Source: Tenericutes bacterium ADurb.Bin239
GTDB taxonomy: Bacteria; Bacillota_I; Bacilli_A; RFN20; CAG-826
Length of the DNA: 64,000 nucleotides
Reading direction: 5' to 3'
NCBI GenBank assembly: GCA_002069815.1
Contig: MWCB01000002.1
Location: forward strand, 4,716 to 68,715
The translations under genes were made by a program, and so were the position numbers. The stretch's first letter is position 1. Each line of letters opens with the position of its first letter. This document shows, one piece after another, positions 1-25,897 of the stretch. The notes under the pieces were generated by a model that worked only from the letters and a program-made list of their open reading frames with translations, was not told the DNA's origin and made no database searches.

Positions 1-461
1 ATTATATGATTTCTAATAATTATGATTTTTCTAGTACAGATTATGGAATAATTAATGAAGCTGGCGAAAAATTGGGTAAATATATTACTGCTCCTAAAAA
101 AATAACACATAAAAAATTTCGTAAGATTAGTTGGGTAGGTTGTTTAACAGTAATGTATAAAAGAAGCATTTTTCCAGACCTTTCTATTCCTGATAGCATT
201 AAAAAAAGGAATGATTATGCCTTATGGTTAAAATTATCAGAAAAAGCGAATTGTTACCATATGAAAGAAATTACTGCCTGTTATCGAAAGAGAGGTGGTT
301 CAATTTCCTCTGGAAGCAAAATAAAGTTATTTAAGTATCATATTGCATTATTTGAAAAACTGTATGGATACAATAATTTTAGAGCATTTTTAATGGCATC
401 AAGGAATACGATTTATTATTTTTGGAAAGTTTTTGCATACACAAAGAAAGAAAAAGCGTAA
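1..461 (+). CDS. glycosyltransferase family 2, C-terminal part (5' end outside window)
   Basis: The ORF is open to the window edge. Its C-terminal region (KRNDYALWLKLSEKANCYHMKEITACYRKRGGSIS) looks GT2 TagX/EpsJ-like, and it sits in a polysaccharide locus. Confidence 0.5.
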   Translation, partial: YMISNNYDFSSTDYGIINEAGEKLGKYITAPKKITHKKFRKISWVGCLTVMYKRSIFPDLSIPDSIKKRNDYALWLKLSEKANCYHMKEITACYRKRGGSISSGSKIKLFKYHIALFEKLYGYNNFRAFLMASRNTIYYFWKVFAYTKKEKA

Positions 462-2792: not shown

Positions 2793-3755
2793 TTAATGAT
2801 TTAAATTGATAGTCATCTTTGAACCAATTAATTCATCAAAGTTTTTCGGGTGTTTAAATCTAAGATATCCTCCCCAGTGAAAAAAAGTGGTTTCTCCAAA
2901 ATATATATTGTTGTTTATGGTATATAAATCAACACGTAAGAAAGGAAAACCATTTGCAATTTTTTTACTAATTTCGATCATTTTTGAGATATTATGTGGC
3001 AATTCAGGAATATTTTCTGCTGGTGGTTCAACCTCCCAAATGTCTAGCGGTTCTAATTTTTCATTAAAAAAATTGATTCTTTCACTTTCAGCTTTATTTG
3101 AATTCACGTGGAAAACAATCAATTCTCCATAATTCATTAGAAATTTATAGTCACGTAAATCTGTTGTATCTAGATATTCTTCCACTAATATTCTGGGTTT
3201 GATTTCTTTGTAATTCCATTCTAATAATTGATAATAGTAATTTATTTTAAGCAATTCATTCAGTATTTTTTGCATTGTTTTAAATCTTATTTTTTTGTGC
3301 GTTCGATCTTTTAAATTTTCAATTTCGTATTTTTTATTAGATTTTTTGTGGATAAAAAAAATATAGCCCGAATTATGATTACATTTTATTATTGATTTAT
3401 TAGGGAGATTTTGTAATGAAATTTGTTTGGCGTTATCAAAAACAGCATATGTTTTCGGGAAGTTTATCTCATCCCCCAATAATTTTTTAATATAATCTTT
3501 GACCAGCACTTTATCAGACATTATTGTTGATTCAGATTTATGAAAATACAATTTTTGCCATAGTAAAATTTCTGAAAATCTAGTCGGATTATTCAAATTT
3601 GGTTTTCTTTTGTAATAGTCTTCATATTCTTTTACTAATAGTTTTGAAATATTAGAAGATTCTATTTTTTTTCGCCTTTTTTTATTAATTCTAACAAGCT
3701 TTTTAACAATAAATAAATGTGTCAAATCAAATTTTTTAAGTATTTTTTTAAACAT
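2793..3755 (-). CDS. TupA-like ATP-grasp family protein
   Basis: Contains KCNHNSGYIFFIHKK and FPFLRVDLYTINNNIYFGETTFFHWGG. These resemble the RVDLY...GKIYFGE.TF core of TupA-like ATP-grasp proteins found in teichuronic and capsule loci. Confidence 0.5.
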   Translation of the reverse strand: MFKKILKKFDLTHLFIVKKLVRINKKRRKKIESSNISKLLVKEYEDYYKRKPNLNNPTRFSEILLWQKLYFHKSESTIMSDKVLVKDYIKKLLGDEINFPKTYAVFDNAKQISLQNLPNKSIIKCNHNSGYIFFIHKKSNKKYEIENLKDRTHKKIRFKTMQKILNELLKINYYYQLLEWNYKEIKPRILVEEYLDTTDLRDYKFLMNYGELIVFHVNSNKAESERINFFNEKLEPLDIWEVEPPAENIPELPHNISKMIEISKKIANGFPFLRVDLYTINNNIYFGETTFFHWGGYLRFKHPKNFDELIGSKMTINLNH

Positions 3756-4067
3756 ATATTGTCTCCTGTTTTATTTTTGCATAAAATACCAAACAATGAG
3801 AATTAGTTTTGTTAGCGAACACAATAACATAAATAAAAGTCAGGCGCTCATCGTAACAAAGCAAACATATAGAACATTTAAAAAGTAATTATGAAGTTTG
3901 CAAATATAGTATACACCATAACGAAAATAAGGAGACTTCATAACTTTTTTTGGTGCTTCAAACACATTTTTGAACGATTTTTGCCTATTGAATACAACAA
4001 AATAGGCGATATTTTGTAAATGATTAATATTTTTATTATAATGGTTAGCGTGGAATAACTTGAAAGT

Positions 4068-5288
4068 ATGAGAATAACGTTTAAAAAAATTAATGTTGGG
4101 TTGTTTGGTACATACATTATGGTTATGTACTTGTTTGATTTAAATATTAATACACTGTGGATATCAAAAGTCGTTTTTTTAATGTTTGCAATCTCAACCT
4201 TGATTTCGTTGTTTATAGCAAAAAAAGTAACTCTCAATTTATTTTTTTGGTTATTTGGTTTATTTGTATTTTATTCAGCAATAAGTATTTTCTGGGCCGT
4301 TGAATCTAATTTAGCGTTGAAGATGACATTAACATTATTTCAGTTATTAATTCTTGGGTTTTGTGTTACCCAAACATTTGATAAAGAAAATATAGAAATT
4401 ATACCCCATTTCTTCGCTCTGGCGGGAGCGTTGCTTTTTTTATATTCGTTATATATCTATGGAATTAAAGATTTTTTTGTCAGTATAATCAACTCAAAAC
4501 GGCTAGGCGCACAAATTAGCCAAGAAAATATTTATGGTTTTCAATCGGCAATTTCAATTGTTGCAGCACTATATTTAATGTTTTTTAAAAAGAAATACAT
4601 TTATGTGTTGGTTTGCCTTGCTTTATTGTTCGTAATCGCCGCTAGCGGATCAAAGTCTGCCTTGTTGATTGTACCAATTGGTTTCATAATTGTTATATTG
4701 TTAAAATATGGCGTTAATAGGAAAGTAATATTATTTTTTATTCTTTTAATTGTTTTCAGTATCGCATTACTTAATACGCCAATTTTTAAAGGTGTAATTC
4801 ACAGAATACAAAAAATGTTAGAAGTTTTGTTGTACGGCAATACAGCCCAAGACGGTTCAACAACAAAAAGGTTAGAATTTATTATAGAAGGAATCGTTTT
4901 ATTTTTTAAAAAACCGCTTTTCGGTTATGGAGCTGATAACTTCAGAGTTATCATCGCTCCCATTTTAGGAGTTTCAACATATTCCCACAATAATTACATT
5001 GAATTACTTGTCAATGGTGGAATAATTGGTTTTCTATTATTTTATTTTTCATATTTTGTATTGATATTGGAAGCATTTTCTAAAAAATTAGATAAGTTTT
5101 TACTTATAATAATGATATTATTTTTGATTGCTGACATGGCAACTGTTTCGTTATATTCAAAAATATTCGTAATTTTTCTATCTTTAGGATTTTCCTCTCT
5201 TGAAGGAGCAAATAACGAAACAGTCGAAGTTAAAAAATATTCAACAAAATATAAAAAAAGCATGATTTCTACGCCAATACTAGGGTAG
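4068..5288 (+). CDS. wzy: O-antigen polymerase/ligase family membrane protein (Wzy-like)
   Basis: Roughly 10-12 predicted TM helices with a large periplasmic loop. The NYIELLVNGGIIGF region is Wzy_C-like. The gene sits next to a Wzx gene. Confidence 0.6.
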   Translation: MRITFKKINVGLFGTYIMVMYLFDLNINTLWISKVVFLMFAISTLISLFIAKKVTLNLFFWLFGLFVFYSAISIFWAVESNLALKMTLTLFQLLILGFCVTQTFDKENIEIIPHFFALAGALLFLYSLYIYGIKDFFVSIINSKRLGAQISQENIYGFQSAISIVAALYLMFFKKKYIYVLVCLALLFVIAASGSKSALLIVPIGFIIVILLKYGVNRKVILFFILLIVFSIALLNTPIFKGVIHRIQKMLEVLLYGNTAQDGSTTKRLEFIIEGIVLFFKKPLFGYGADNFRVIIAPILGVSTYSHNNYIELLVNGGIIGFLLFYFSYFVLILEAFSKKLDKFLLIIMILFLIADMATVSLYSKIFVIFLSLGFSSLEGANNETVEVKKYSTKYKKSMISTPILG

Positions 5289-5552
5289 TAGGAACTAAAG
5301 AAGTAATTGAATATTTTATTAACAGATAACGGTACCGCTTGATAAAATCATATATTAAAAAAGACAAGAAGAAAGAATAGAAAAATATATAGAATCATAA
5401 AGTGTTTTTAAAGTTCTCCCACTTTCAATAAATGAGCATTTAATAATAACGAAAAACATAAAGTTTATTGAATAGGTATTTTACCTTGTTGCTTTACCAC
5501 ATTCATGCGTAGTGATACAATTATGTTCGAATAATTAAAAGGTGATTTATAA

Positions 5553-6419
5553 ATGGCTAAAAATGACATTCTAAAATTAAACAAACAACAAAGTGATATT
5601 AAAAAGAAACTCAAAAAATTACAGAGTATTCAACTAGAAATATTGCAATATTTTGATACTGTTGCGAAGGAAAATGATATTACATATTATTTAGCTTTTG
5701 GCACGCTGCTCGGTGCAATTCGACACAAAGGCTTCATTCCTTGGGATACAGATATCGATGTTACACTGACTCGAGACGAATATGAAAAAATAATTAAAAT
5801 TTTGCGTGATAGGGAAGAAAATGAAAGTTTCTTCGTGAGATCTTCTGGTGAAAAAAATCATTTTTGTACTCACGCACTATTATATTGTAAAAACACTGAA
5901 CTTATAAACAACAATAACAAAAGAAAAAAAATACGGAGAGAAGTTTATATTGATTTATTTCCGCTTGATAGAATTCCCGATGATGATAAATTATGGAAAA
6001 AACATTTGCAAAGAGTTACCAAAATTGCAAAAGCTACAGATATAAAGAAACCAGTGTATCACAAGAAGGGAAGATTATATAAATTTCTTAAATATGCACG
6101 TTCATATTTGTACTTTTATATATCTATTGAAAAACTCTTTAAAAAATTTGATAAAGAGGTACAGCGATATAATGATCAAAAATCCAAGCGTTATGCGCAA
6201 TTAACGAGTCCATATAGACATGTGCCCCTAAATACTGAATATTTCGGCGAACCAAAATATGTTCAATTTGAAAATATTATGGCCCCCATACCACAAAACA
6301 CCAAATTAATTTTAGAAGCAAATTATGGCGATTTCATGAAACTTCCATCACTTGAAGAACAGGAAGAACAATTATCGAAATATTTCGAGGTATATGATTA
6401 TAGGGACACAAATGAATAA
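5553..6419 (+). CDS. licD: LicD-family phosphotransferase (phosphocholine/phosphonate transferase to glycan)
   Basis: YYLAFGTLLGAIRHKGFIPWDTDIDVTL matches the LicD/fukutin nucleotidyltransferase-fold motif, including its DxD. An AAAGGTGA RBS precedes the start. Confidence 0.7.
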   Translation: MAKNDILKLNKQQSDIKKKLKKLQSIQLEILQYFDTVAKENDITYYLAFGTLLGAIRHKGFIPWDTDIDVTLTRDEYEKIIKILRDREENESFFVRSSGEKNHFCTHALLYCKNTELINNNNKRKKIRREVYIDLFPLDRIPDDDKLWKKHLQRVTKIAKATDIKKPVYHKKGRLYKFLKYARSYLYFYISIEKLFKKFDKEVQRYNDQKSKRYAQLTSPYRHVPLNTEYFGEPKYVQFENIMAPIPQNTKLILEANYGDFMKLPSLEEQEEQLSKYFEVYDYRDTNE

Positions 6420-7938
6420 ACACTCCAAAAAGAAAGCCGTTATTATTTCATACATTGCTACTATTCTTAATTATGCAGCAATGTTTTTCGTTGTTCCTAT
6501 AACGATTAGAATGTTAGGAAAGCAAGAATTTGGCTTGTATAGTTTAGTTAATTCTGTTGTTGGCTACCTAGCTCTTCTGAGTTTGGGTCTTGGCAGTGCT
6601 TATATTCGCTTTTATTTTCGCGCAAAAACTGACAAGCACTCATATAAAGTTGAAAATCTAAACGGGATGTATTTTTTATCATATGTAATTATTGCTTTTG
6701 CGGTAATTATTTTGGGTGTTATTTTTATTATATTTTCCGAAAATATTTTTGGTCCTAAATTAACAATAGAAGAGCATCAAACCGCCAAGGTTCTATTAGC
6801 AATTTTAATATTTAATTTAGCAACCACGTTTCTCTTTTCTATTTTTTGGTCATATACACGAGCAATAGAACATTTTGTGACTTTGGAAATAGCAAATTTG
6901 CTTAAAGTTGTTTTAGGACCCGCAGTTACTATTCCCTTGCTTCTTTTGGGATTTGGCAGTGTAGGATTTGTTGCTGGTACAACCGCAATCACTACATTAA
7001 TTGAAATCTCTGTGATGATATATGCTATTAAAAAAGGGCGAATTACTTTCAAATTTAATTATTTCGACAAAGTTTTATTAAAAGAAATTGTCGTTTACTC
7101 ATTGTTTATTTTTGGTTTTCAATTATTAGATCAAATTAATAATGGTGTTGATAATTTAATACTCGGATGGACGGGAGGAACCGAAGTTGTTTCTATATAT
7201 GCAGTGGGAGCAACAATTGCATATGTTATTTTATCCTTACCAAATGGAATAAAAGGGGTTATAGTTCCAGAAATCAATAAAATTTCTTCTAACGATGAAA
7301 ATAAATTAGAAAAAATTAGTTTATTGCAAACTCGTTATGGAAGAATAATATTTATGATTTTAGCGTTAGTACTTTTAGGTTTTGTACTTTTAGGTTTACC
7401 ATTTCTTGATTTATGGGCTGGTGTTGGATTTAGTGATTCATATCTAATCGTAATTTTGTTGGTTTTAGCTAGGTTAATTAATTACTCATTGGTAGTTAGT
7501 TCCGAATTTATTAGAGCGGAGAATAGACACAAAACTAGACTTACCATCTATGCCATAACGATATTACTCAATGTAATAGTTTCTATTCCGCTGGCAATTT
7601 GGCTGGGACCAGTTGGTGCTGCTATAGGTACTGCTTTCACATACACTATTTATACAATATTTCTATATTTTTACTATATTCGTAAAATAGGGTTGAATTT
7701 AAACATCTTGTTGAAGCAACTTATAAAAATGGCAGTAATTTATGTTCTTGTATTTACACCATTTTATGTTGCAACCTTCTTTGTGCAAATGAAAAACATA
7801 ATGATTTTTTTAGCAATTGGTGGAGGATTTACTTCAATATTTTTAATAGTAAATTATTTATTTGTTATGAATGAATATGAACGCGGAATAATCAAAACTC
7901 TACTTAGAATAAAAAGGAAAACACACTCACAATCTTAA
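6412..7938 (+). CDS. wzx: polysaccharide flippase Wzx (MOP superfamily)
   Basis: About 12 TM segments with a Wzx-like N-terminus, MNKHSKKKAVIISYIATILNYAAMFFVVPI. I chose the ATG at 6412, which has an AGGGA RBS, over the track start at 6352. This start overlaps the licD stop. Confidence 0.7.
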   Translation: MNKHSKKKAVIISYIATILNYAAMFFVVPITIRMLGKQEFGLYSLVNSVVGYLALLSLGLGSAYIRFYFRAKTDKHSYKVENLNGMYFLSYVIIAFAVIILGVIFIIFSENIFGPKLTIEEHQTAKVLLAILIFNLATTFLFSIFWSYTRAIEHFVTLEIANLLKVVLGPAVTIPLLLLGFGSVGFVAGTTAITTLIEISVMIYAIKKGRITFKFNYFDKVLLKEIVVYSLFIFGFQLLDQINNGVDNLILGWTGGTEVVSIYAVGATIAYVILSLPNGIKGVIVPEINKISSNDENKLEKISLLQTRYGRIIFMILALVLLGFVLLGLPFLDLWAGVGFSDSYLIVILLVLARLINYSLVVSSEFIRAENRHKTRLTIYAITILLNVIVSIPLAIWLGPVGAAIGTAFTYTIYTIFLYFYYIRKIGLNLNILLKQLIKMAVIYVLVFTPFYVATFFVQMKNIMIFLAIGGGFTSIFLIVNYLFVMNEYERGIIKTLLRIKRKTHSQS

Positions 7939-8033
7939 TTTAGAAAAAAGAGTTGTTTTAAAAAGATTATATTTATTTAACATCAGAAAATAGCAATATG
8001 TAGAAAATTCCAGCAGATAAAAATTAACAGAAG

Positions 8034-9152
8034 TTATTTTCTCCATGTTTTAATATTAATGATCTGAGCGTAACTTTGAATAATTTTAACTACTTTAGTG
8101 GAAACATTTAAAGTTTGATAATCTTTATTAAATGTTATTTTTTCATTTTTTAAAGCTAACGCTAAATTAATTGATTGTATAATATTTTTTGTAGTAATTC
8201 CGCCGATAATGATACTTCCGAAATCTAGCGCTTCAGGTCTTTCAGTTGAAGTTCTAATGAGAATTCCAGGAAAATTAAGCATTGCGCTTTCCTCACTTAA
8301 AGTTCCAGAATCACTTAGCACACAAAACGATTCTTTTTGTAATTTATTATAGTCAAAAAAGCCTAATGGTTTCATTTGTTTTACAAGAGGATGGAATATG
8401 AAGTTTCGTTTTTCAATCCATTTTTTGCTACGCGGGTGCACCGAATAAATAACTGGTAGTTGATATTTTTCTGCGATGTCATTAATTGCAGTCATTAAGT
8501 TGTAGAAGTTATGTTCTAGGTCAATATTCTCTTCACGATGACATGAAACAAGGATATATTTACCTCTTTCTAATTTAAGTTCCGATAGTATTTTACTTTT
8601 TTCGATGTTTTCCGCATACATATGAATGACTTCAGCCATTGGAGAACCAGTTACGAAAATAGTTTTTGGATCAATACCTTCTTCAATAAGATAAAGGCGA
8701 CTATTTTCTGTGTAAGGCAAGTTAATATCAGCTATACTGTCTACAATTCGTCGATTAATCATTTCGCTAACATTCCAGTCCCAGCAACGATTGCCAGCTT
8801 CCATATGGAAAATAGGTACCTTTAATCTTTTTGCGGAGATAGCAGCTAAGGCACTGTTAGTATCGCCAAGAATTAAAACCGCATCAGGCTTTTCTTTAGC
8901 AATAACCTTGAATGACTTGGCAATAATATTACCCATTGTTTCCCCCAAATCTATATCTGCAACTTCTAGAAAATAATCTGGTTTTCTTATGCCTAAGTCA
9001 TTAAAAAAAATTTCATTTAGTTCATAATCATAGTTTTGGCCAGTATTAACCAAAATATGATTGAATACTTCGTCAGCCTTCTTAATAACAGCTGATAAAC
9101 GAATGATTTCAGGTCTTGTTCCTAAAATAGTCATTAATTTTAATTTTGACAT
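8034..9152 (-). CDS. fnlC: UDP-N-acetylglucosamine 2-epimerase (FnlC/CapG/WbjD type)
   Basis: The N-terminus MTILGTRPEIIRLSAVI is typical of non-hydrolysing UDP-GlcNAc 2-epimerases. It is the third gene of a CapE/CapF/CapG-like trio. Confidence 0.75.
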   Translation of the reverse strand: MSKLKLMTILGTRPEIIRLSAVIKKADEVFNHILVNTGQNYDYELNEIFFNDLGIRKPDYFLEVADIDLGETMGNIIAKSFKVIAKEKPDAVLILGDTNSALAAISAKRLKVPIFHMEAGNRCWDWNVSEMINRRIVDSIADINLPYTENSRLYLIEEGIDPKTIFVTGSPMAEVIHMYAENIEKSKILSELKLERGKYILVSCHREENIDLEHNFYNLMTAINDIAEKYQLPVIYSVHPRSKKWIEKRNFIFHPLVKQMKPLGFFDYNKLQKESFCVLSDSGTLSEESAMLNFPGILIRTSTERPEALDFGSIIIGGITTKNIIQSINLALALKNEKITFNKDYQTLNVSTKVVKIIQSYAQIINIKTWRK

Positions 9153-9155
9153 AAT

Positions 9156-10265
9156 CTATACCTCCTCATAAATTGTATCGGGATTATTTTTATCAAAAGG
9201 CTCATTACTCCATATAATCACAACCATATCAATTTCACCGATATTTTCAATGTTATGGGTATAGCCAGGCGGAATATCTAAAACTTGAAGTTTATCGCTA
9301 TTTACTTGATATTCAATCGTCTCATCAGTGTGCACCTTACGAAAACGAATAATTCCTTTTCCACATACAACCAGAAACTTTTCAATTTTGCTATGATGCC
9401 AATGGTTACCTTTTGTAACGCCAGGTTTAATAACGTTAATTGAAAGCTGGCCACAATCATTTGTCCTAAGAAATTCAGTAAAAGATCCGCGATTATCTAT
9501 TGTCATTTTTAAATCATATATAAGTTTTTCTTTTGGTAAATAACTTACATAATTAGAATATAATTTTTTTTGGAAGTCATCATCTAATTTAGGAATACTT
9601 AAGTTTTGTCTGCTATGTTTAAAGGAGTAGAGAAGATCTACAATATAACCAAGTTTTACTCTGTAAACAGGTGTGATTTGCCTAAACTTTTGGGATTTCG
9701 AGTCATTTTTATCCAATAAACCAATCAATGCATTAACAACGTCATCAATATAAACAAGCTGAATATCTTGGTTTGAATCATTAATAACAATTGGTAAATC
9801 ACGCGCGATGTTATACGAAAAAGTAGCAACAGCGCTATTGTAGTTAGGTTTTGCCCATTTGCCAAAAACATTATCAAGACGGAAAATGTATATTTTGTTT
9901 CCTGTTTCTTTTTCATAATCAAACATTAAATCTTCAGCAGCTTTTTTACTGATGCCATAAGGATTATTAATCGCAACTTTTGTGGAAGAAGAAATCATTA
10001 TTGGTGATTTGTTATTATGTTTTTTAAGGTTATTTAAAAGTACAGACGTAAAAACATAATTACCTTCCATAAATTCTTTTTCATCCTTTGGTCTATTAAC
10101 TCCCGCGAGATGAAAAACAAAGTCACACTCTTTGGTGAATTTATCTAAGTCTTCTAAAGAGGAATCTATGTCATACGAAAAAATAGTGTAGTTATTATTT
10201 TCTTTTAATCGTTCAATTAAATTCTGAGCAATAAAACCCTTGGAGCCAGTAACCAGTATTTTCAT
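9156..10265 (-). CDS. fnlB: UDP-2-acetamido-2,6-dideoxy-L-talose reductase/epimerase (FnlB/CapF type: SDR + C-terminal cupin)
   Basis: An N-terminal Rossmann motif MKILVTGSKGFIAQNL is followed by a C-terminal cupin-like half (HWHHSKIEKFLVVCGKG). It lies between the FnlA-like and FnlC-like genes. Confidence 0.7.
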   Translation of the reverse strand: MKILVTGSKGFIAQNLIERLKENNNYTIFSYDIDSSLEDLDKFTKECDFVFHLAGVNRPKDEKEFMEGNYVFTSVLLNNLKKHNNKSPIMISSSTKVAINNPYGISKKAAEDLMFDYEKETGNKIYIFRLDNVFGKWAKPNYNSAVATFSYNIARDLPIVINDSNQDIQLVYIDDVVNALIGLLDKNDSKSQKFRQITPVYRVKLGYIVDLLYSFKHSRQNLSIPKLDDDFQKKLYSNYVSYLPKEKLIYDLKMTIDNRGSFTEFLRTNDCGQLSINVIKPGVTKGNHWHHSKIEKFLVVCGKGIIRFRKVHTDETIEYQVNSDKLQVLDIPPGYTHNIENIGEIDMVVIIWSNEPFDKNNPDTIYEEV

Positions 10266-11260
10266 TATTTAAATATATCCAACTTCATTAATAATATTTT
10301 CATTTCTTTTACATTTAATCTTGTAGTATTGTGTGAATGATACGCATCCTTTATAAAATTTTGTTCAACGCCCTTTTCAATATATTTTTCATAGTTCAAA
10401 TTACGATTATCCGAAGGTATTTTATAAAAGTTTGGCAATTCAATAGCTTTCGCCATTTCCTCTTGTGTCACTAATACCTCGTAAAGTTTTTCACCATGCC
10501 TTGTTCCAATTAAAACGGGATTTTGCTTAACACTCTTTAATTCAAGTATTGCTCTTGCTAGAGTATCAATTGTGGCAGCGGGGGCTTTGTGCACGAATAA
10601 ATCTCCTTGTTTACCATGTTTAAAAGCATACAAAACAAGATCTACCGCATCATCAATTGTCATCATAAATCGTGTCATATTAGGATTAGTGATAGTAATA
10701 GGTTTTCCTGCTTTAATTTGATCGAGAAACAACGGTATTACAGAACCACGCGTTGCCATAACGTTACCATATCTTGTAAGGCATAAAATAGTATCAGTAG
10801 AACGAAGTTGTCTAGATCTAGCCACAACATTTTTTTCCATGAGAGCCTTACTCATTCCCATAGCATTAATTGGGTAGGCTGCTTTGTCAGTTGATAAGAA
10901 TATTGCCTTTTTAACACCATTTTTTACAGACGCAGTGATAACATTATCGCTTCCTAAGATGTTTGTTTTGACAGCTTCAAGCGGATAAAATTCACATGAG
11001 GGAACTTGTTTTAGTGCGGCAGCGTGAAAAACATAATCAACACCAATGAAAGCTCCTTCAATGGAGTTATAGTCACGAACATCACCAAGATAAAATTTTA
11101 GTTTGTTGTTATTGAATTTTTTTCTCATATCTTCCTGTTTTTTCTCATCGCGCGAAAGAATCCTAATTTCTTTAATGTCTGAGAGTAAGAAACGTTCAAC
11201 AACAGCATTTCCAAAAGAACCTGTTCCACCAGTTATTAAGAGTGTTTTATCTTTAAACAT
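10265..11260 (-). CDS. fnlA: UDP-GlcNAc 4,6-dehydratase/5-epimerase (FnlA/CapE type)
   Basis: LLITGGTGSFGNAV is the CapD/CapE-type extended-SDR motif and the protein is about 330 aa. Its start overlaps the fnlB stop. Confidence 0.8.
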   Translation of the reverse strand: MFKDKTLLITGGTGSFGNAVVERFLLSDIKEIRILSRDEKKQEDMRKKFNNNKLKFYLGDVRDYNSIEGAFIGVDYVFHAAALKQVPSCEFYPLEAVKTNILGSDNVITASVKNGVKKAIFLSTDKAAYPINAMGMSKALMEKNVVARSRQLRSTDTILCLTRYGNVMATRGSVIPLFLDQIKAGKPITITNPNMTRFMMTIDDAVDLVLYAFKHGKQGDLFVHKAPAATIDTLARAILELKSVKQNPVLIGTRHGEKLYEVLVTQEEMAKAIELPNFYKIPSDNRNLNYEKYIEKGVEQNFIKDAYHSHNTTRLNVKEMKILLMKLDIFK

Positions 11261-11479
11261 ATTATTTTTCCTTCCTTATTTTTCTAATGTAATGTTTATT
11301 TTACAAACAGAAATTATTTAAAACATATCAATATCATTTTAATTATACCTAAAACTGTGTAAATCTTCGTTAAATAATTAAAAATAAAAGATATTTAACT
11401 TTAATGGTTTAGAAACTGTTAAAAATTAACTATAATATTGATAGCGCATTATTTGTAACATTATGTAAGCGAGGTAATT

Positions 11480-12787
11480 ATGAATAAAAAAGTATATGTA
11501 GCAATTGGAGCAGACATTCTCCATCCAGGTCATATCAACATTATTAACGAAGGTGCAAAATACGGAAAAGTAATAATTGGTTTACTATCTGATGAGGCTA
11601 TAGCTTCTTACAAAAGACTACCAATTTATCCTTACGATTCTAGAAAAGCAGTTTTTGGCAGTCTTAAAAATGTTTATGAAATAGTAAGGCAAGACACCCT
11701 TGACTATACCGAAAATCTAAGAAAAATAAAACCTGATTATGTTGTACATGGTGATGATTGGCGCGAAGGTGTTCAACAATTAGTCAGAGAAAAAGTAATT
11801 GAAGTATTAAAAGAATGGGGCGGGGAACTTATTGAAGTTCCCTACACTCATGGTATTAGTGCCACTAGCGCTCATGCCCAAATCACTAGAGATTTGAGAG
11901 CACCAGATTATCGTCGCGGAACATTAAAACGAATGCTCCATTTAAAACCCTTTGTGTCAGTTATGGAAGCTTCTAATGGTCTATCTGGTCTTATTGTTGA
12001 AAATACAAGTGTTATTGATAAAGAAACGGGATTACCACGTTCTTTTGATGCAATGTGGATTTCTTCGCTTTGTGACTCAACCTTTAAAGGAAAACCAGAT
12101 ATTGAACTTGTGGACCTAACAAGTAGATTAGTCACTATCAACGAAATCATGGAAGTGACCACTAAACCGATTATTCTAGATGGCGACACAGGCGGTAAAG
12201 AGGAACACTTTGTGTTTAATGTTAGAACATTAGAAAGATTAGGAGTTTCCGCAATTATTATTGAAGACAAAACTGGTCTTAAAAAGAATTCACTATTTGG
12301 AACTGAAGTCGAACAAACTTTAGAAGATCCAGAGGTGTTTGCCCATAAGATTAGAGCCGGAAAACAAGCTTTAACCACTCGTGATTTTTTAATTTTTGCG
12401 CGTATTGAAAGTTTAATTGCCGGAAAAGACGTCGCGGATGCGATGATGCGCGCGAAAATTTACGTTGAAGCGGGAGCGGACGGAATTATGATTCACTCTA
12501 AAGATAAATCCGGAGAAGACATTTTTGAATTTATGCGACAATTCCGCAAATATAGTAAAGATATTCCAATTATTCTTGTCCCAACTTCTTACAATCAATT
12601 TACAGAAAAAGAATTAGCGGAAAAAGGAGCGAATATTATCATCCACGCTAATCATTTACTAAGAGCAGCCTACCCCGCAATGGTAAAGGCAGCCGAAACC
12701 ATCCTTGAAAATGGTCGCAGTAAAGAAGCGGATGAATTCTGTTTACCAATTAAAAAAGTATTAACACTTATTCCAGGTGGTAAATAA
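11480..12787 (+). CDS. pepM: bifunctional cytidylyltransferase (HxGH, TagD/Fom1-type) / phosphoenolpyruvate mutase PepM
   Basis: An N-terminal domain of about 110 aa carries [14 protein letters not shown], the HxGH cytidylyltransferase motif. The remainder is PepM-like ([13 protein letters not shown]...[10 protein letters not shown]). Confidence 0.85.
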
Positions 12788-13907
12788 AATGATTGATACA
12801 AAAGCGTTCTATGATTATTTATCAAGTAAAGACATTGACACATTTTTTGGAGTACCCGATTCTTTGCTTAAAGATATTTGTGCATATATCACACAAAATG
12901 CACCAAGTGAAAAACATATTATTACCGCTAATGAAGGTAATGCTGTTGCCCTTGCTTGTGGGAATTATTTAGCAACAGGAAAAATAGCAATGGTTTACTT
13001 ACAAAATAGTGGCTTAGGTAATATTGTTAATCCGCTTATTTCTCTAGCAGACGAAGATGTTTACAATATTCCAGTATTATTTATGGTGGGGTGGAGAGGT
13101 GAACCAGGAACACATGATGAGCCCCAACATAAAAAACAAGGAAAAATTACACTGAGTACTCTTGAAACACTCGGAGTAAAAACATTTATACTTGAAGAAA
13201 ATTATAAGCCAATTGTTGATGAAGCAGTTAAGTATATGAAAAAAACACTTAAACCAGCGGCCATCGTTGTTCGAAAAGGAACATTTAGTAAAGTTAAATT
13301 AGAACTCCCACTAGACTCTTTTTCAATGTCACGGGAAGAGGCCTTAAAAGCAATGATGAAACACATTGATGATAAAAGTGTCATAGTGAGTACAACTGGA
13401 AAAACAAGTCGCGAAGTATTTGAAATAAGAGTTAAAAATAATGATTCACACGAAAGAGACTTCTTGACTGTTGGATCAATGGGCCACACCGCATCAATTG
13501 CGCTTGGTATTGCTTTAGCCAGCAAAAAGCGTGTATTTTGCATTGATGGTGATGGTTCTATGCTCATGCATTTAGGTGGGTTAGGGGTTGCAGCAGTTAA
13601 CGCTCCTAAAAACTTTAGATATATTGTTATTAATAATGGAGCGCATGAATCAGTGGGTGGGCAACCCACAGTAGCGTTCTCGCTAAACTTTAAAAAGATT
13701 TTGGAAGGTCTAGGCTTTAGTAAAGTTTATGAAGTTAAGACATTAGAAGACATTGAGAAAGATTTTCCAAAGTTTAAGCGTAAAAATAAAGCAGCTTTAG
13801 TAGTGTATGTTAATCAAGGAAGCCGTGATGATTTAGGGCGTCCAACAACGACTCCAGCCCAAAATAAAGAGTCATTAATGAAGTTTTTAAGGAGAAGCCG
13901 TAAATAA
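12777..13907 (+). CDS. ppd: phosphonopyruvate decarboxylase (ThDP-dependent)
   Basis: [11 protein letters not shown] is the ThDP-binding motif and the 376 aa length fits Ppd. The gene overlaps pepM by 11 nt, indicating translational coupling. Confidence 0.8.
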
Positions 13908-13908
13908 A

Positions 13909-15714
13909 ATGAAAGCATTCATATTTAATAGTGGTATAGGATCCCGCTTAGGCGACTTAACAAAAGACAAACCCAAAGCGCTGGTTGAATTAAAAAACGG
14001 AGAAACTATTTTAGGACGACAACTTCGTATCCTGCGAAGTGTAGGAATTAAGCATATTGTCATTTCGACAGGGTATAAAGCAGAAATGATTAAAGATTAT
14101 TGTAGAAAAGAGTTTCCAGAATTAGATTTTACTTTTGTGCATAATCCAAAGTTTGACACTACCAATAGTATTTACACAATGTTCTTAGCGGAAAATACAT
14201 TTCAAGATCATTTTCTTATAATGCATGGCGATCTAGTATTTGATGAAAAAATAGTTGAAAAACTTTTAGTAGAAAAACATCGTGATTTAGCATGCATCAA
14301 TACTAATATTCCAAAACCTCTTAAAGATTTTAAAGGAAGAGTTAGGAATGGTAAACTCCATCGGATTTCGGTTGATATTTTTGGGGAAAATGATTATGCT
14401 TTGCAACCGTTATATAAGTTGAGTTTTGCCGCGATTAGCCAATGGATGCTTCAAATCAAGGATTTAGTTCGCGCAAATGTTGTTAATGTTTATGCCGAAA
14501 ATGCTTTTAATAATGCATTACCACTTCTAGATGTACGCGTCGTTGATTATAAAGATAATTTTATTGAAGAAATTGATACATTAGATGATTATGATAGAGT
14601 AAGCGATGCTGTAAGATTATTTGATTACGCAAATCAAAAAGTTTATAACGGAGATTACTTAGTTAGATTGGATGAAGTATTTAAAAAACATGATTTTAAG
14701 AGACCATTTATTGTATATAACGCTGCTGCTTATAAAAGCCCAGAGTATCCTAAGTTTATTAAAAGATATGAAACAATAATGTTTGATGATTATTCTCCTA
14801 ATCCAAAGTATGAAGAAATAATGCCTGGAATTAAACTGTTTAAAGAAAATAAATGCGATGTTATTGTTGCTATTGGTGGTGGTTCAACGTTAGACGTAGC
14901 AAAAGCAATAAAGTTATTTTCTAAACTAAATCCAAACATTGATTTTTTAAAACAAACACCAGTGTATGTTAATACTCCGCTTATTGCTATTCCCACAACA
15001 GCAGGAACTGGTAGCGAAACAACGCGATACGCTGTAATCTACGCAAGTGGTGAAAAACAATCGTTAACACATGATTGTATTTTTCCAGATATCACGATAA
15101 TTGATCCTACTTTTCTTCGCGGCTTGCCTGAATATCACCGGAGATCATCATTGCTTGACGCACTTTGTCAAGCAATTGAAAGTTATTGGTCAAAAGGCGC
15201 AACCAAACAGACCCGTGAATTTAGTGCGAGAGCGATTCACTTATTTAGGTATACTTATAAACACTATTTAGAAGGTCATCCGTTTGTGGACGATAGAATT
15301 ATGAAAATTGCCTACTTAGCAGGTCAGGCAATTAACATTACCGCTACAACAGCACCACATGCAATGAGTTATAAACTGACCTCCTTAACTGGTATTGCCC
15401 ATGGTCACGCTGTTAGTGTTACACTTCCTTACACCTATAAATATATGTTTGACAATATGGAAGTGGAAAAAGATAAAAATTTGGCTCAAACATTTGCCAA
15501 TCTTGCGAAAATTTTTGAAACTGATGAAACAAAACTATTTGAATTATTAAGAACTATCTTTGATGAATTTGAATTGGAAAAACCAAAGGTTACCGAAAAA
15601 CAACTTATGGAATTGATTAATGATGTGAATACAGAAAGGTTGCAGAATAATCCCGTTTTTCTCGATAAAGAAGCAATTTCAGAAATATATAGGAGCTCAC
15701 TCACAGTAGTGTAA
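13909..15714 (+). CDS. fusion: LicC-like nucleotidyltransferase (N) + iron-containing alcohol dehydrogenase (C), putative phosphonoacetaldehyde reductase/phosphonate cytidylyltransferase
   Basis: The N-terminus MKAFIFNSGIGSRLGDLTKDKPKALVEL has the NTP_transferase G-x-G-x-R...K pattern seen in LicC. The C-terminal 340 aa carry GGGSTLDVAKAI and conserved His residues typical of Fe-ADHs. The start lies 2 nt after the ppd stop. Confidence 0.75.
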   Translation: MKAFIFNSGIGSRLGDLTKDKPKALVELKNGETILGRQLRILRSVGIKHIVISTGYKAEMIKDYCRKEFPELDFTFVHNPKFDTTNSIYTMFLAENTFQDHFLIMHGDLVFDEKIVEKLLVEKHRDLACINTNIPKPLKDFKGRVRNGKLHRISVDIFGENDYALQPLYKLSFAAISQWMLQIKDLVRANVVNVYAENAFNNALPLLDVRVVDYKDNFIEEIDTLDDYDRVSDAVRLFDYANQKVYNGDYLVRLDEVFKKHDFKRPFIVYNAAAYKSPEYPKFIKRYETIMFDDYSPNPKYEEIMPGIKLFKENKCDVIVAIGGGSTLDVAKAIKLFSKLNPNIDFLKQTPVYVNTPLIAIPTTAGTGSETTRYAVIYASGEKQSLTHDCIFPDITIIDPTFLRGLPEYHRRSSLLDALCQAIESYWSKGATKQTREFSARAIHLFRYTYKHYLEGHPFVDDRIMKIAYLAGQAINITATTAPHAMSYKLTSLTGIAHGHAVSVTLPYTYKYMFDNMEVEKDKNLAQTFANLAKIFETDETKLFELLRTIFDEFELEKPKVTEKQLMELINDVNTERLQNNPVFLDKEAISEIYRSSLTVV

Positions 15715-15773: not shown

Positions 15774-16562
15774 ATGTATAGACCTATTAAAAGAACAATG
15801 GACTTTGTATTATCGCTACTAGCAATCATAATGCTGAGCCCTATTTTTGTTGTTATTTCCATTTTAGTAAGAATAAATCTTGGAGCCCCTGTTCTTTTTA
15901 AACAAAAGCGAGCGGGAAGATATAATAAAATATTTACCTTATACAAATTTAGATCAATGCGAACTGTATATGACGAAAACGGAGAATTGTTGCCTGATGA
16001 ACAAAGATTAACGAAGCTAGGTCTTTTTTTACGCAAAACAAGTCTTGATGAATTGCCCCAACTATTTAATATTTTGTTTGGTCATATGACAATAATAGGG
16101 CCACGCCCAAGAGTTATTTTTGAGACAATGTTAATGAAAGACACAAAATATGTGTACAGGATGGCCATTAAACCAGGATTGAGTAGTTGGTCGGTGATTC
16201 ATGGAAGAAACAATATGAGAATTGATCAAGCTTTGGCTTATGATTTTGAGCATGTGGTTAAATTTTCATTTTGGTTAGATTTAAAAATATTTTTTAAGAC
16301 GATAGGGATTGTTTTGAAAAGGACAGGTATTAACACCGATGGTTATGTGACCACTAAGCCTATCAGTGAATTTTTGATTGAAAATAATTTAAAGACACCT
16401 GCTGAAATTACAGAAATAAAAAAAGAGTCATTTGATGTTGAGGCATCAAATTTAAAATATATACCGATGAATATATCTAAAGAAGAATTTAAAGCAAAAC
16501 GTCGTGAAATCCAAAAAAATCGCAAATCATATACTCCTAGCAAAATTGTAACTTGGGATTAA
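15774..16562 (+). CDS. initiating phosphoglycosyltransferase (small Bac_transf / PglC-WbaP C-domain type sugar transferase)
   Basis: MDFVLSLLAIIMLSPIFVVISILVRINLGAPVLFKQKRAGRYNKIFTLYKFRSMR is the hallmark N-terminal hairpin plus the K-F-R-(S/T)-M motif of bacterial sugar transferases. Confidence 0.8.
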   Translation: MYRPIKRTMDFVLSLLAIIMLSPIFVVISILVRINLGAPVLFKQKRAGRYNKIFTLYKFRSMRTVYDENGELLPDEQRLTKLGLFLRKTSLDELPQLFNILFGHMTIIGPRPRVIFETMLMKDTKYVYRMAIKPGLSSWSVIHGRNNMRIDQALAYDFEHVVKFSFWLDLKIFFKTIGIVLKRTGINTDGYVTTKPISEFLIENNLKTPAEITEIKKESFDVEASNLKYIPMNISKEEFKAKRREIQKNRKSYTPSKIVTWD

Positions 16563-18734: not shown

Positions 18735-20069
18735 ATGAAAAAAAAAGCAAGACAAGATGGCGTGGCACTTATCACATTATGGAAAATGTTTCTTAAAAAC
18801 GTATTCTCCGTTTTTTATTTTATGATTGTGGGTTTAATACTAGCAGTTATATATACACAATTTTTAGTGAAACCATCGTTTGTAGCAACTGGTAATATTG
18901 AAAATGTTGGAGCAGTAAACACGGCCTTAATGCAAACTATGCCAATGATTGCGAAGGAGCAACAAACTCTTGAAAAAGTAGTGGAAAAAATGAATGTCCC
19001 AGTTGTAGAACAAGCAAAAAAAATTGAAGAAATTAACACAAAATTAGTTGTTAATAATTATTCCGCGACAACATTAAAAGTTACTATTTCATACAAAAGC
19101 ACCGCAAAAAACGAAGCTGAACTTGTTGTCAATTGCGTAATAGAAGTCTCGATTGAACGTTTTATTGAACGAAATCCGGCATTGGAAGATAAGGTTAAAA
19201 AGCAAAGTAATCCAATTGTAGCGCGTCCAACTGGTTTATCGAATAGAGCAATATATATAGGATTTATTGGATTAGGTGTAGTATTTGGTGCTGTAGTTGG
19301 TATTGCGGGTGATTTAATTAATCGACATATTTTGTTTGCCGAAGATTTAAAAGAGTATGGTGTTCCTTGTAACGTAATTAATTTAAATCAAAAAAAGGGT
19401 GATGTTATTCCCCCACTTGAAACAGAGGAATTTTTAAAAGGAACTATAGTTTTACAAGATCAACTAGAGGGAGTGATTAGAGACAAAAAAGCAAGGGTAA
19501 TTGGAGTAGCTAATTTGGGGTATGATACTTACGAAGTTTTAAGTGCAGTACTGGCGGAGAATCTATCAAAAGTTGGACTTAAAACTTTAGTTATAGATTT
19601 AGATTTAGAACATCCAAGAATACATGCTTTCTATAATGTTGACACCGCGATAAATATAACCAACATTCTAAATGACGAAGTTATTAAACCCCTTAAAATC
19701 AAAAATAATTTAGAAGTGTTACCCACTACCACATATGCTTATCCCGCTCATTTTTTGAAAGATGAAAGATTACATAAATTAATTAGAGAAAATGCACTTA
19801 AATATGATTATGTGTTTGTTAATATTCCAATCGTGGATTATTATGCTCCTATCTTATTTAATTTTGATTTAATTGATATGTTGCTTATCAACACTTCTTT
19901 TGAAGGCACGAAGATGAAAAAATTAGATGCGTATATTGAAAACCTCGAAATAGAACATCGCAGTAAATTATTCCTTAATGGTATCGATAGTCGCGCTAAA
20001 CGGGATTTTACAAAAATTAAAGAAAAGATAAAAGCTTTATTCAAACGCAAAAATAAAAAGGACGAGTAA
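18735..20069 (+). CDS. fused polysaccharide co-polymerase (Wzz/CpsC-like, 2 TM) + degenerate CpsD/BY-kinase-like ATPase domain
   Basis: An N-terminal TM segment followed by PSFVATGNIEN and a second TM (IGFIGLGVVFGAVVGIAG) resembles CpsC. The C-terminus aligns by eye to CpsD: Walker A' LVIDLDLEHP is kept, but the P-loop GKS/T is replaced by GYDTYEV and there is no C-terminal Tyr cluster. Confidence 0.5.
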   Translation: MKKKARQDGVALITLWKMFLKNVFSVFYFMIVGLILAVIYTQFLVKPSFVATGNIENVGAVNTALMQTMPMIAKEQQTLEKVVEKMNVPVVEQAKKIEEINTKLVVNNYSATTLKVTISYKSTAKNEAELVVNCVIEVSIERFIERNPALEDKVKKQSNPIVARPTGLSNRAIYIGFIGLGVVFGAVVGIAGDLINRHILFAEDLKEYGVPCNVINLNQKKGDVIPPLETEEFLKGTIVLQDQLEGVIRDKKARVIGVANLGYDTYEVLSAVLAENLSKVGLKTLVIDLDLEHPRIHAFYNVDTAINITNILNDEVIKPLKIKNNLEVLPTTTYAYPAHFLKDERLHKLIRENALKYDYVFVNIPIVDYYAPILFNFDLIDMLLINTSFEGTKMKKLDAYIENLEIEHRSKLFLNGIDSRAKRDFTKIKEKIKALFKRKNKKDE

Positions 20070-20099: not shown

Positions 20100-21242
20100 T
20101 TATTGATACTTTTTTAATATTTCTACTGCTGTTTTTAATGTGTCCATGGGAACACATAAGCTGAGTCTTACATATTTATCGAACTTTTCACCAAAAGCGA
20201 TACCTGGTACCACGAGTAAATTATGTTCTTCTAATAATTTATTAGCGAACTCTGTACTTGTTGACTTTGTTTCACTAATATTCATAAAGTAATAGAAAGC
20301 ACCATCAGGTAAGGTGCCACTGAATAGTGGTAATTTATTAATTTCTTCATGTAAGAATAAAGCTCTTTCTTTTAATTCATTGTTATATGGAATTAGAAAC
20401 ATTGGTTTATTAGTTAAGGCGGCAACTGCTCCTTTTTGAATAAAAGTTGCGGTATTTGTGTGAATGCTTTGGTTAACTAGGTTCATTTTATGCACTAACG
20501 CTTTATTACTTAGCGCATAACCTAATCGAAAGCCAGTCATGGCATAAGTTTTACTAAAGCCATTAACGACAACGAGTTGATCTTTAATAAGCGGGAATTC
20601 GCCAAAAGAATGGAAGGCTTTCCCACTGAAGTTAAGTTTGTCATAAATTTCATCACTTAGTAAATAAATCTTATTTTGGAATACTAAATTAACAATTTTC
20701 ATTGTTTCTTGGAATGATAAGATTTGACCAGTGGGGTTATTTGGATAATTAACAATTAATAATTTTGTTTTCTTTGTAATCTTTTCTTTTAATTTTTCAA
20801 TTGGAAAAGTAAAGTCTTTATTAAGCGCTAGTTTAATAATCTTAGCTTTTGGTTCCGCGAGTTTAATCATTGCGGGATAACTAACGTAATACGGCGCGAT
20901 AATAATAACTTCGTCGCCTGGTTCAAGAATACTCGCTAGCGCTGCGTGAATCGCCGCTTTTGCGCCTGGAAAAATAATAACTTCATCTGCAGTGTAATGT
21001 TTATTTTCTTTAGCGATTAAAGTTCTTAATTCATATAAACCTTGCGGCGTGGAATACTTTGTATAACCTTCATCAAGTGCTTTCTTCGTTGCGTCAATTA
21101 TATATTCAGGGGTGGCAAAGTCAGGTTCACCGACGGCAAGCGAAATAATCTTCTCACCTTCCGCTTCTTTTTGTCTTGCTTTTTCACCGAGTAAAAGGGT
21201 CGGACTTTCTTTTATTTCCGGACTAAATAACATAAATAACAC
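20100..21242 (-). CDS. class I/II pyridoxal-phosphate aminotransferase (aspartate/aromatic aminotransferase-like)
   Basis: NYPNNPTGQ and SKTYAMTGFRLGY (the PLP-binding lysine) are the class-I aminotransferase motifs. Confidence 0.8.
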   Translation of the reverse strand: MLFMLFSPEIKESPTLLLGEKARQKEAEGEKIISLAVGEPDFATPEYIIDATKKALDEGYTKYSTPQGLYELRTLIAKENKHYTADEVIIFPGAKAAIHAALASILEPGDEVIIIAPYYVSYPAMIKLAEPKAKIIKLALNKDFTFPIEKLKEKITKKTKLLIVNYPNNPTGQILSFQETMKIVNLVFQNKIYLLSDEIYDKLNFSGKAFHSFGEFPLIKDQLVVVNGFSKTYAMTGFRLGYALSNKALVHKMNLVNQSIHTNTATFIQKGAVAALTNKPMFLIPYNNELKERALFLHEEINKLPLFSGTLPDGAFYYFMNISETKSTSTEFANKLLEEHNLLVVPGIAFGEKFDKYVRLSLCVPMDTLKTAVEILKKYQ

Positions 21243-25893: not shown

Positions 25894-25897
25894 ATTA

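Follow-up and report, generated by a model that had tools for sequence, protein, structure and literature searches.

A LicC-like nucleotidyltransferase fused to a PhpC-type reductase in a gene cassette predicted to supply 2-hydroxyethylphosphonate to a Wzx/Wzy polysaccharide locus

Surface decoration is thought to be the role of most bacterial phosphonate genes. We analyzed a stretch of 64,000 nucleotides (the window) from contig MWCB01000002.1 of Tenericutes bacterium ADurb.Bin239, which contains a three-gene phosphonate cassette. Gene 1 encodes a Fom1-like cytidylyltransferase (CyT) fused to a phosphoenolpyruvate (PEP) mutase (Ppm), gene 2 a phosphonopyruvate decarboxylase (Ppd), and gene 3 a LicC/PntC-like nucleotidyltransferase (NT) fused to a group-III alcohol dehydrogenase (ADH). 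An earlier reading of this DNA, made from the sequence alone (the sequence-only reading), had described the cassette, and its open reading frames (ORFs), Pfam and NCBIfam matches and motifs bear out every particular of that description. We consider it likely that the cassette is a self-contained module, which makes 2-hydroxyethylphosphonate (HEP) and activates it with cytidine monophosphate (CMP) for the surrounding Wzx/Wzy polysaccharide.

Several described systems come close to this arrangement. The Pnt pathway of Treponema denticola, known from the fusion protein PntC-AEPT (Tde1415; 6PD1/6PD2; PMC6697681), likewise combines Ppm and Ppd with a LicC-like cytidylyltransferase that is fused to a branch-point enzyme. 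It shares with the cassette a second nucleotidyltransferase on Ppm, LicD-like proteins or glycosyltransferases encoded nearby, and a CMP-phosphonate as the presumed donor. The enzyme fused in Tde1415 is, however, a class-V transaminase, whereas gene 3 carries a PhpC-type reductase, and the two nucleotidyltransferases share low identity, with Glu104 of the Treponema protein replaced by His106. Since gene 3 has a PhpC-type reductase in the place of this transaminase, HEP instead of 2-aminoethylphosphonate (AEP) is predicted as the product. The early fosfomycin pathway of Streptomyces wedmorensis (Fom1-Fom2-FomC) has in common with the cassette a CyTase-Ppm fusion, Ppd and a group-III ADH, with HEP as the ADH product and CMP-HEP as the activated product, both of which are predictions for the cassette. 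The cassette differs from it by an additional LicC-like NT and by its polysaccharide setting. As the sequence-only reading had noted for Fom3 and Fom4, the downstream fosfomycin genes are absent: neither Fom3 (radical-SAM), Fom4/HppE epoxidase nor FomD was found among the window ORFs scanned with Pfam (all ORFs of at least 80 residues within 8 kb of the cassette, minus a few short ones nested in annotated genes; eleven ORFs of 150-300 residues, each more than 18 kb from the cassette, lie outside the scanned set). CMP-HEP would serve as a donor for transfer in the cassette, whereas it is a transient handle in the fosfomycin route.

The ADH domain of gene 3 resembles PhpC, FomC, DhpG, AglG and a degradative PhpC from Paraburkholderia fungorum (PMC13576164) in its group-III fold, in having counterparts of the metal ligands and of Lys157, Thr256, Tyr264 and Arg349, and in the linkage of its gene to those of enzymes acting on or producing phosphonoacetaldehyde. 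It differs from these enzymes in its fusion to NT, in a glutamine that replaces the second metal-ligand histidine, and in a score below the cutoff of TIGR03405. With the Lic pathway of Streptococcus pneumoniae the cassette shares its logic, in that a LicC-type enzyme activates a head group (as a CMP or CDP derivative) and LicD moves it to a glycan. Here, the head group would instead be made de novo from PEP and contain a C-P bond, and the Pfam-scanned genes of the locus showed neither a choline kinase domain of the LicA type nor a transporter domain of the LicB type. PhpC-type, HEP-forming neighborhoods make up 8.5% of the ppm neighborhoods in complete genomes; surface-associated ones include those of Campylobacter and Helicobacter, and the only products isolated from the type are a methylphosphonate conjugate and a HEP-exopolysaccharide from Stackebrandtia (PMC8942020). 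As far as PMC8942020 and PMC13576164 cite them, HEP-glycans have been isolated from two actinomycetes only. Among them, the phosphonoglycans of Glycomyces (2014; cited in the same two papers) carry HEP on an extracellular polysaccharide and belong to a PhpC-type neighborhood, which is actinobacterial.

Both gene junctions of the cassette read TAA-A-ATG with a gap of 1 nt, provided that gene 2 starts at ATG 12789, and a GG-rich Shine-Dalgarno-like element is found 5' of both junction start codons. The alternative GTG start of gene 2 at 12777, taken from the ORF list, would create an 11-nt overlap with gene 1. A promoter-like site (TTTAGA-17-TATAAT, 11408-11436; a consensus match only) precedes the cassette in the intergenic region, and Rfam and tRNA scans returned no RNA family in this region and no regulatory RNA near the cassette. 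The G+C content of the window is low (28-42%), and its sequence is practically identical to that of the 645-kb contig JBMNLK010000005.1 (GCA_050952665.1, a metagenome-assembled 'Bacilli bacterium').

The product of gene 1 matches PF01467 (CTP_transf_like) over residues 12-129 and PF13714 (PEP_mutase) over residues 151-409. Its Ppm domain passes the equivalog cutoff of TIGR02320 (378 bits, cutoff 319.6) and contains, at residues 262-271, the EDKxxxxxNS motif that separates Ppm from the remaining proteins of the isocitrate-lyase family (PMC6697681). In the CyT domain, the HPGH (residues 15-18) and GISAT (residues 125-129) motifs are intact and correspond to the HxGH and RTxGISTT-like motifs of Fom1-type domains. 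A comparison that the sequence-only reading had called for aligned this domain with the CyTase domain of Fom1 (PDB 5X3D) at 60% identity over 131 residues (E 6e-52). The Fom1 CyTase forms CMP-HEP and PntC forms CMP-AEP (PMC6697681), and the CyT domain could likewise be a HEP cytidylyltransferase, as predicted from its sequence. We rejected the 60% identity as proof of HEP specificity; it does not fix the substrate, since a similar domain occurs in a Treponema-type AEP cluster (L089). The Fom1 architecture recognized by the sequence-only reading is indeed present, but it is not special to fosfomycin producers, as had been implied. Fusions of nucleotidyltransferases to Ppm are the rule, with PF01467 found in 23.6%, PF12804 in 33% and both in ~3% of Ppm proteins (PMC6697681). 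Gene 2 had been read as Ppd, and this assignment holds: the protein scores 451 bits with TIGR03297 (cutoff 312.5) and contains the thiamine-diphosphate motif GDG...NN at residues 254-283.

Profile libraries were indecisive for the ADH domain of gene 3, and we therefore used comparative evidence. The domain matches PF00465 (Fe-ADH) and PF25137 (ADH_Fe_C) over residues 246-597. Its best solved match by sequence is a sulfoacetaldehyde reductase (6JKO, E 7e-38), which was again the best match in a fold search with an AlphaFold model of gene 3; this model is confident (pLDDT 93.6, pTM 0.90) and added little beyond the fold match. The reaction catalyzed by sulfoacetaldehyde reductase is the sulfonate analog of the reaction we propose for the ADH domain. 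We compared the domain to 80 ADH homologs with their flanking genes, collected in a contig scan with generic Fe-ADH peptides and mostly distant (at most 41% identity). Nearly all of the closest homologs in this set (35-41% identity) adjoin Ppm and Ppd. In a neighbor-joining tree of the 80 sequences, the window ADH is placed in a clade formed by Ppm/Ppd-linked ADHs (loci L001-L006, L008, L011 and L082-L087) and by one other enzyme, from L007, which directly follows PhnX (TIGR01422, 350 bits, cutoff 220). The sister clade includes L010, where the ADH follows PhnA (510 bits, cutoff 408) and a PhnY-like phosphonoacetaldehyde dehydrogenase, and the next branch outward holds two Streptomyces Ppm-Ppd-ADH loci. 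Every ADH in the window clade, as well as that of L010, is tied to an enzyme making or consuming phosphonoacetaldehyde (Ppd, PhnX, PhnY/PhnA), and the window domain stands apart from the ordinary alcohol and propanediol dehydrogenases.

According to a 2026 study (PMC13576164), HEP is bound in PhpC by Lys157, Thr256, Tyr264 and Arg349, of which Tyr264 is strictly conserved in PhpC and replaced by Phe in sulfoacetaldehyde reductases. The signature residues of the window ADH are K383, D417, Q421, T480, H484, Y488, H498 and R577, and K383, T480, Y488 and R577 align with the four HEP-binding residues. Tyr and Arg occupy the Y488 and R577 positions in all Ppm-, PhnX- or PhnA-linked homologs, while most ordinary ADHs have His and Asn. 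The FomC/PhpC type proposed in the sequence-only reading is thus upheld by a phosphonoacetaldehyde-linked clade and by the PhpC-specific Tyr and Arg. That reading had also described an Fe-dependent ADH fused to a LicC-type nucleotidyltransferase. Pfam confirms the fusion, but the metal ion probably is not iron: the second metal ligand is Gln421, at a position that is His in most family members and Gln in the Zn-dependent sulfoacetaldehyde reductase (PMC13576164), and the gene 3 enzyme is probably Zn-dependent. In the same homolog set, three gut ADHs (L016, L017 and L020; from Mediterraneibacter, Hespellia and another bacterium) have Phe at the Tyr264 position, the signature of sulfoacetaldehyde reductases. 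The PhnX- and PhnA-linked loci (L007:5953-7995 in a Bacillota metagenome-assembled genome, MAG; L010:6870-10996 in a Planctomicrobium genome) are HEP-degrading clusters like those described in PMC13576164, and their PhpC-type ADHs stand alone.

The NT domain of gene 3 matches PF12804 (NTP_transf_3) and PF00483 (NTP_transferase) over residues 1-128, and its nearest solved structures are LicC (1JYK, E 4e-13) and PntC-AEPT (6PD1, E 2e-10). The nucleotidyltransferase signature GXG(T/S)RX4-8PK is found at residues 9-23 as GIGSRLGDLTKDKPK (GIGSRx8PK), and the acidic metal-binding residues D108, E221 and D223 are kept in 146-147 of the 150 closest cluster representatives; 166 representatives belong to the domain family at E <= 1e-30. 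With the catalytic motifs kept in both CyT and NT, neither nucleotidyltransferase of the cassette looks degenerate. In Tde-PntC, the substrate amine is contacted by the acidic pair Glu104/Glu196, and in LicC by Asp105/Asp192. Gene 3 retains the second residue as Glu197 but has His106 at the first position, a histidine shared by 146 of the 150 nearest representatives (clustered at 50% identity), and it therefore lacks the acidic pair expected for the amine of AEP or choline. This substitution suggests a head group without an amine. The choline-box Trp 191 of LicC corresponds to Ala196 in gene 3.

Gut and rumen metagenomes commonly contain the cassette. Its order, CyT-Ppm / Ppd / NT-ADH, is seen again in L001 and on metagenomic contigs (L081-L088) that include one from human gut, and all of these contigs have glycan-assembly or LicD/LCP genes next to the cassette. 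In a second arrangement, an NT-CyT-Ppm triple fusion is followed by ADH and Ppd (L002, L003, L005, L008 and L011; several of these are MAGs, mostly from rumen or ruminant gut). The five domains are also found as ADH / CyT-Ppm / Ppd / NT (L092), and a cluster representative joins NT, CyT and ADH in one chain (P0242, 751 residues). Where contigs are informative, stand-alone His106-clade NTs also are located within Ppm-Ppd clusters. Clustering at 90% identity divides the listed matches of the NT-ADH fusion family into at least 120 groups.

The sequence-only reading had placed the cassette inside a Wzy-dependent polysaccharide locus with a LicD transferase, and Pfam and NCBIfam matches confirm this setting. 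An initiating glycosylphosphotransferase, Wzx, Wzy and glycosyltransferases are all encoded around the cassette (Table 1). In the LicD protein, the DTDID motif (residues 65-69) supplies the expected DxD element and aligns with the catalytic region of FKRP. At least six cluster representatives (P0076, P0130, P0144, P0147, P0156 and P0209) have LicD fused to NT-ADH, and P0144 is an NT-ADH-LicD-LicD protein of 1228 residues. In L082, L083 and L087 the cassette is directly adjoined by LicD genes; L087 has three of them and also an adjoining LCP ligase gene. These fusions and this adjacency provide the best available evidence that LicD may use the product of the cassette.

We propose the following pathway, in which the substrates and products, the LicD step and the acceptor sugar are inferred. 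The Ppm domain would convert PEP to phosphonopyruvate, and Ppd would decarboxylate phosphonopyruvate to phosphonoacetaldehyde, pulling the unfavorable mutase equilibrium. The ADH domain of gene 3, probably with a Zn site, would then reduce phosphonoacetaldehyde to HEP with NAD(P)H. We place this reduction before cytidylylation because the predicted clamp for a free phosphonate is retained in the ADH. HEP and cytidine triphosphate would next be joined to CMP-HEP by the LicC/PntC-like NT, by the Fom1-like CyT, or by both. LicD may use CMP-HEP to place the HEP-phosphonyl group on a hydroxyl of an undecaprenyl-diphosphate-linked repeat unit, which would have been started by the glycosylphosphotransferase, and the decorated unit would be flipped by Wzx and polymerized by Wzy.

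Several observations weigh against this proposal. The LicD gene is located 5 kb from the cassette with three opposite-strand genes in between, and two of the related loci (L085 and L088) have no LicD within 10 kb. The ADH domain scores 154 bits with TIGR03405 (Phn_Fe-ADH/PsrA), far below the cutoff of 423.7, even though this is still its top NCBIfam match. The shortfall is uninformative and the model apparently too narrow, since the stand-alone ADHs of the PhnX-linked L007 and the Ppm-linked L002 score equally low (141 and 134 bits). The Fom1-like CyT domain of L089 stands in an AEP-type cluster, as outlined above. The His106 clade of NT domains is also found without ADH, and its copy in L093 adjoins a CDP-alcohol-transferase-like gene; the substrate of this clade thus need not always be HEP. 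A class I/II aminotransferase (PF00155) is encoded on the opposite strand 4.4 kb downstream of the cassette (20100-21242). Finally, the proposal offers no reason for having two cytidylyltransferases that both appear active. A similar puzzle is posed by AEP clusters, in which a Ppm-fused nucleotidyltransferase is accompanied by a separate one (PMC6697681). Simple redundancy is unlikely because CyT and NT both look catalytically intact and are kept in every architecture.

A rather doubtful reading would be that the two cytidylyltransferases are non-redundant, that HEP does more than cap the glycan and that the LicD proteins build structures bridged by phosphonate esters, either HEP oligomers or HEP linking two parts of a glycan. 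Such bridges could form because HEP retains a free hydroxyl after phosphonyl transfer and because LicD is present in two to three copies beside some cassettes. If so, HEP bridges would represent a C-P analog of the phosphodiester chemistry of teichoic acids, and the NT-ADH-LicD fusions would mark LicD as the phosphonyl transferase of surface phosphonate pathways.

CMP-HEP might also be delivered to an acceptor other than the Wzx/Wzy repeat unit, such as a teichoic-acid-like polymer, a glycoprotein or a lipid. Related cassettes are indeed found in varied settings, including a flagellar locus (L092), a locus with a TagGH-like exporter (L093) and one with the LCP ligase (L087), and the window also encodes a YfhO-family membrane protein of 1190 residues. 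In the window, however, a single Wzx/Wzy locus flanks the cassette on both sides, the initiating transferase follows it directly, and the only candidate phosphonyl transferase, LicD, is located between wzy and wzx. We thus regard a different acceptor as improbable.

The final decoration could instead be AEP, produced by a transaminase encoded elsewhere or by the aminotransferase at 20100-21242, with the ADH acting on the side or in salvage. Surface phosphonates are most often AEP (56% of neighborhoods; PMC8942020), and of this genome our transaminase search covered the 64-kb window. With the AEPT of the AEP cluster L089 as query, tblastn (E <= 10) recovered class-V aminotransferases in two Streptomyces loci but gave no match in the window, nor in any of 20 loci with the cassette or a rearranged form of it, in line with the absence of an AEP transaminase asserted by the sequence-only reading. 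No window ORF scanned with Pfam has PF00266 (class-V aminotransferase) as its primary match. The L089 query gene comes from the genomic context of one match to an N-terminal fragment of Tde-PntC (taken from a printed alignment), in a protein search that returned short fragments only and no full-length PntC-AEPT. We rejected the downstream aminotransferase as a hidden AEP or phosphonoalanine transaminase: it is encoded on the opposite strand, is separated from the cassette by RNA-ligase, MazG and pseudouridine-synthase genes, has an aspartate-aminotransferase-like profile, and is absent from the related loci. In addition, gene 3 joins the ADH to the activating enzyme just as PntC-AEPT does with AEPT, and the amine-binding Glu is replaced by His106. 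It is therefore very improbable that AEP is the final decoration. Domain identities, catalytic motifs, conserved linkage and the lack of a transaminase nearby were computed directly. Together, the ADH clade with its Tyr and Arg, the lack of AEPT in the window and the 20 loci, and the fusions support the earlier idea of a CMP-HEP donor for polysaccharide decoration. We regard as well supported the prediction that a glycan would receive HEP rather than AEP, with CMP-HEP as the activated form.

It is equally remote that HEP is a mere intermediate, which unlinked enzymes would process further, for example into methylphosphonate, a hydroxylated HEP or, with the TupA-like enzyme, a phosphonopeptide, to give a possibly diffusible product. 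Several natural products are made by way of HEP (PMC13576164, PMC8942020), the locus has an ATP-grasp gene (2793-3755), and a comparable Ppm-Ppd-ADH set from a gut methanogen was read as a possible antibiotic cluster (PMC10035134), but the scanned window ORFs contain no radical-SAM methyltransferase, cupin/HD dioxygenase, epoxidase, FomD or non-ribosomal peptide synthetase, the compact three-gene cassette is conserved in glycan loci, and the ATP-grasp gene, which encodes an enzyme of the teichuronopeptide (TupA) type, is not a conserved neighbor of the cassette.

The sequence-only reading knew of no worked-out HEP-glycan system in Firmicutes. Our full-text literature search likewise found no chemically characterized Firmicutes HEP-glycan, no characterized CMP-phosphonate transferase, no description of an NT-ADH fusion and no account of a step beyond the CMP-phosphonate donor. 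The implied novelty was nevertheless overstated, because HEP-type surface clusters are already an inventoried class (PMC8942020). The cassette is a well-supported member of a predicted pathway class rather than a new kind of system, and its confirmation would not overturn current thinking, since this class had already been predicted from genomes. Its value may lie in giving clean and testable access to the transferase step and to HEP-glycans of gut Firmicutes, as a compact cassette in a readable polysaccharide locus. The relatives that combine nucleotidyltransferase, reductase and LicD in a single protein make assays from phosphonoacetaldehyde to HEP-glycan practical. If our proposal is correct, gut Firmicutes would display hydrolysis-resistant C-P groups on their surface, which would bear on phage and immune recognition and could help to account for the wide occurrence of dedicated HEP-degrading pathways (PMC13576164).

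Table 1. Features of the cassette and of the surrounding polysaccharide locus (window coordinates)
Feature	Position	Strand	Remarks
GT2 glycosyltransferase fragment, TuaG-like	6-461		at window start, where the locus runs off
D-glucuronyl C5-epimerase C-terminal-like protein	485-1399
GT4 glycosyltransferase	1681-2772
TupA-like ATP-grasp protein	2793-3755	-
Wzy-type polymerase	4068-5288	+	PF04932
LicD-family transferase, candidate HEP-phosphonyl transferase	5553-6419	+	PF04991, 150 bits; DTDID and DLFPLD motifs
Wzx-type flippase	6394-7938 (alternative start 6352)	+	PF01943, PF13440; start per public annotation
FnlA-like protein, WbcJ/FnlB-like reductase and WecB-type 2-epimerase (trio)	8034-11260	-	UDP-2-acetamido-2,6-dideoxy-L-hexose genes
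Divergent intergenic region, AT-rich	11261-11479	+	directly 5' of the cassette
Gene 1, Fom1-like cytidylyltransferase-PEP mutase fusion	11480-12787	+	435 residues
Fom1-like HxGH cytidylyltransferase (CyT) domain	11480-11899	+	residues 1-140 of gene 1
PEP mutase (Ppm) domain	11924-12787	+	residues 149-435 of gene 1
Gene 2, phosphonopyruvate decarboxylase (Ppd)	12789-13907	+	372 residues from ATG; start per public annotation
Gene 3, LicC/PntC-like nucleotidyltransferase-group-III ADH fusion	13909-15714	+	601 residues
LicC/PntC-like nucleotidyltransferase (NT) domain	13909-14637	+	residues 1-243 of gene 3
PhpC-type phosphonoacetaldehyde reductase (ADH) domain, predicted	14644-15714	+	residues 246-601 of gene 3
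Small polyprenyl-phosphate glycosylphosphotransferase, repeat-unit initiating enzyme	15774-16562	+	PF02397, 188 bits; 59 nt downstream of the cassette

Among the other genes of the locus, the amino-sugar trio scores below cutoff with TIGR04130 (531 bits) and NF047837 (425 bits) and above cutoff with TIGR00236 (237 bits). The C5-epimerase-like and TupA-like genes hint at a polymer that contains an epimerized uronic acid and is substituted with amino acids, in a teichuronopeptide-like manner. No chain-length regulator was securely identified in the locus. An ORF of 444 residues (18735-20069) has no Pfam match and matches a tyrosine-autokinase model weakly (TIGR01007, 36 bits); it could encode a divergent chain-length regulator or be unrelated to the locus. 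The highest G+C content in the window (0.39-0.42) is found in two genes for Big_2-domain proteins (24409-28024 on the reverse strand, and 30620-34192), one of which has a weak metallo-beta-lactamase match.

Related loci show additional arrangements. In L092 (2292-8723), an Fe-ADH gene, CyT-Ppm, Ppd and a stand-alone NT are inserted between fliD/fliS/fliT and motA/motB, and the cassette is preceded by a gene for a sulfatase-family (EptA/LtaS-like) protein of 682 residues, which suggests a phosphonate modification tied to the flagellum and another kind of transferase. The L093 cluster (3154-12169) consists of a TagGH-like ABC exporter, CyT-Ppm, Ppd, the His106-clade NT and the CDP-alcohol-transferase-like protein. 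It contains neither an ADH nor a class-V transaminase, and a DegT-type aminotransferase is encoded two genes on. In a further cluster representative (P0135, 612 residues), the His106 NT is fused to a rhomboid protease domain. A Clostridia MAG (L013:1809-3908 and 8826-12010) combines the NT-CyT-Ppm triple fusion with LicD and Wzy in the absence of an Fe-ADH; its Ppd gene adjoins that of an aldo/keto reductase, which may be a non-orthologous phosphonoacetaldehyde reductase. On an Endomicrobium contig (L090:10001-16336), a short PntC-like gene precedes what looks like a remnant of the AEPT C-terminus and, further on, genes for a methyltransferase, a DUF6564 protein and, at the contig end, CyT-Ppm, a so far uncharted layout of a phosphonate cluster.

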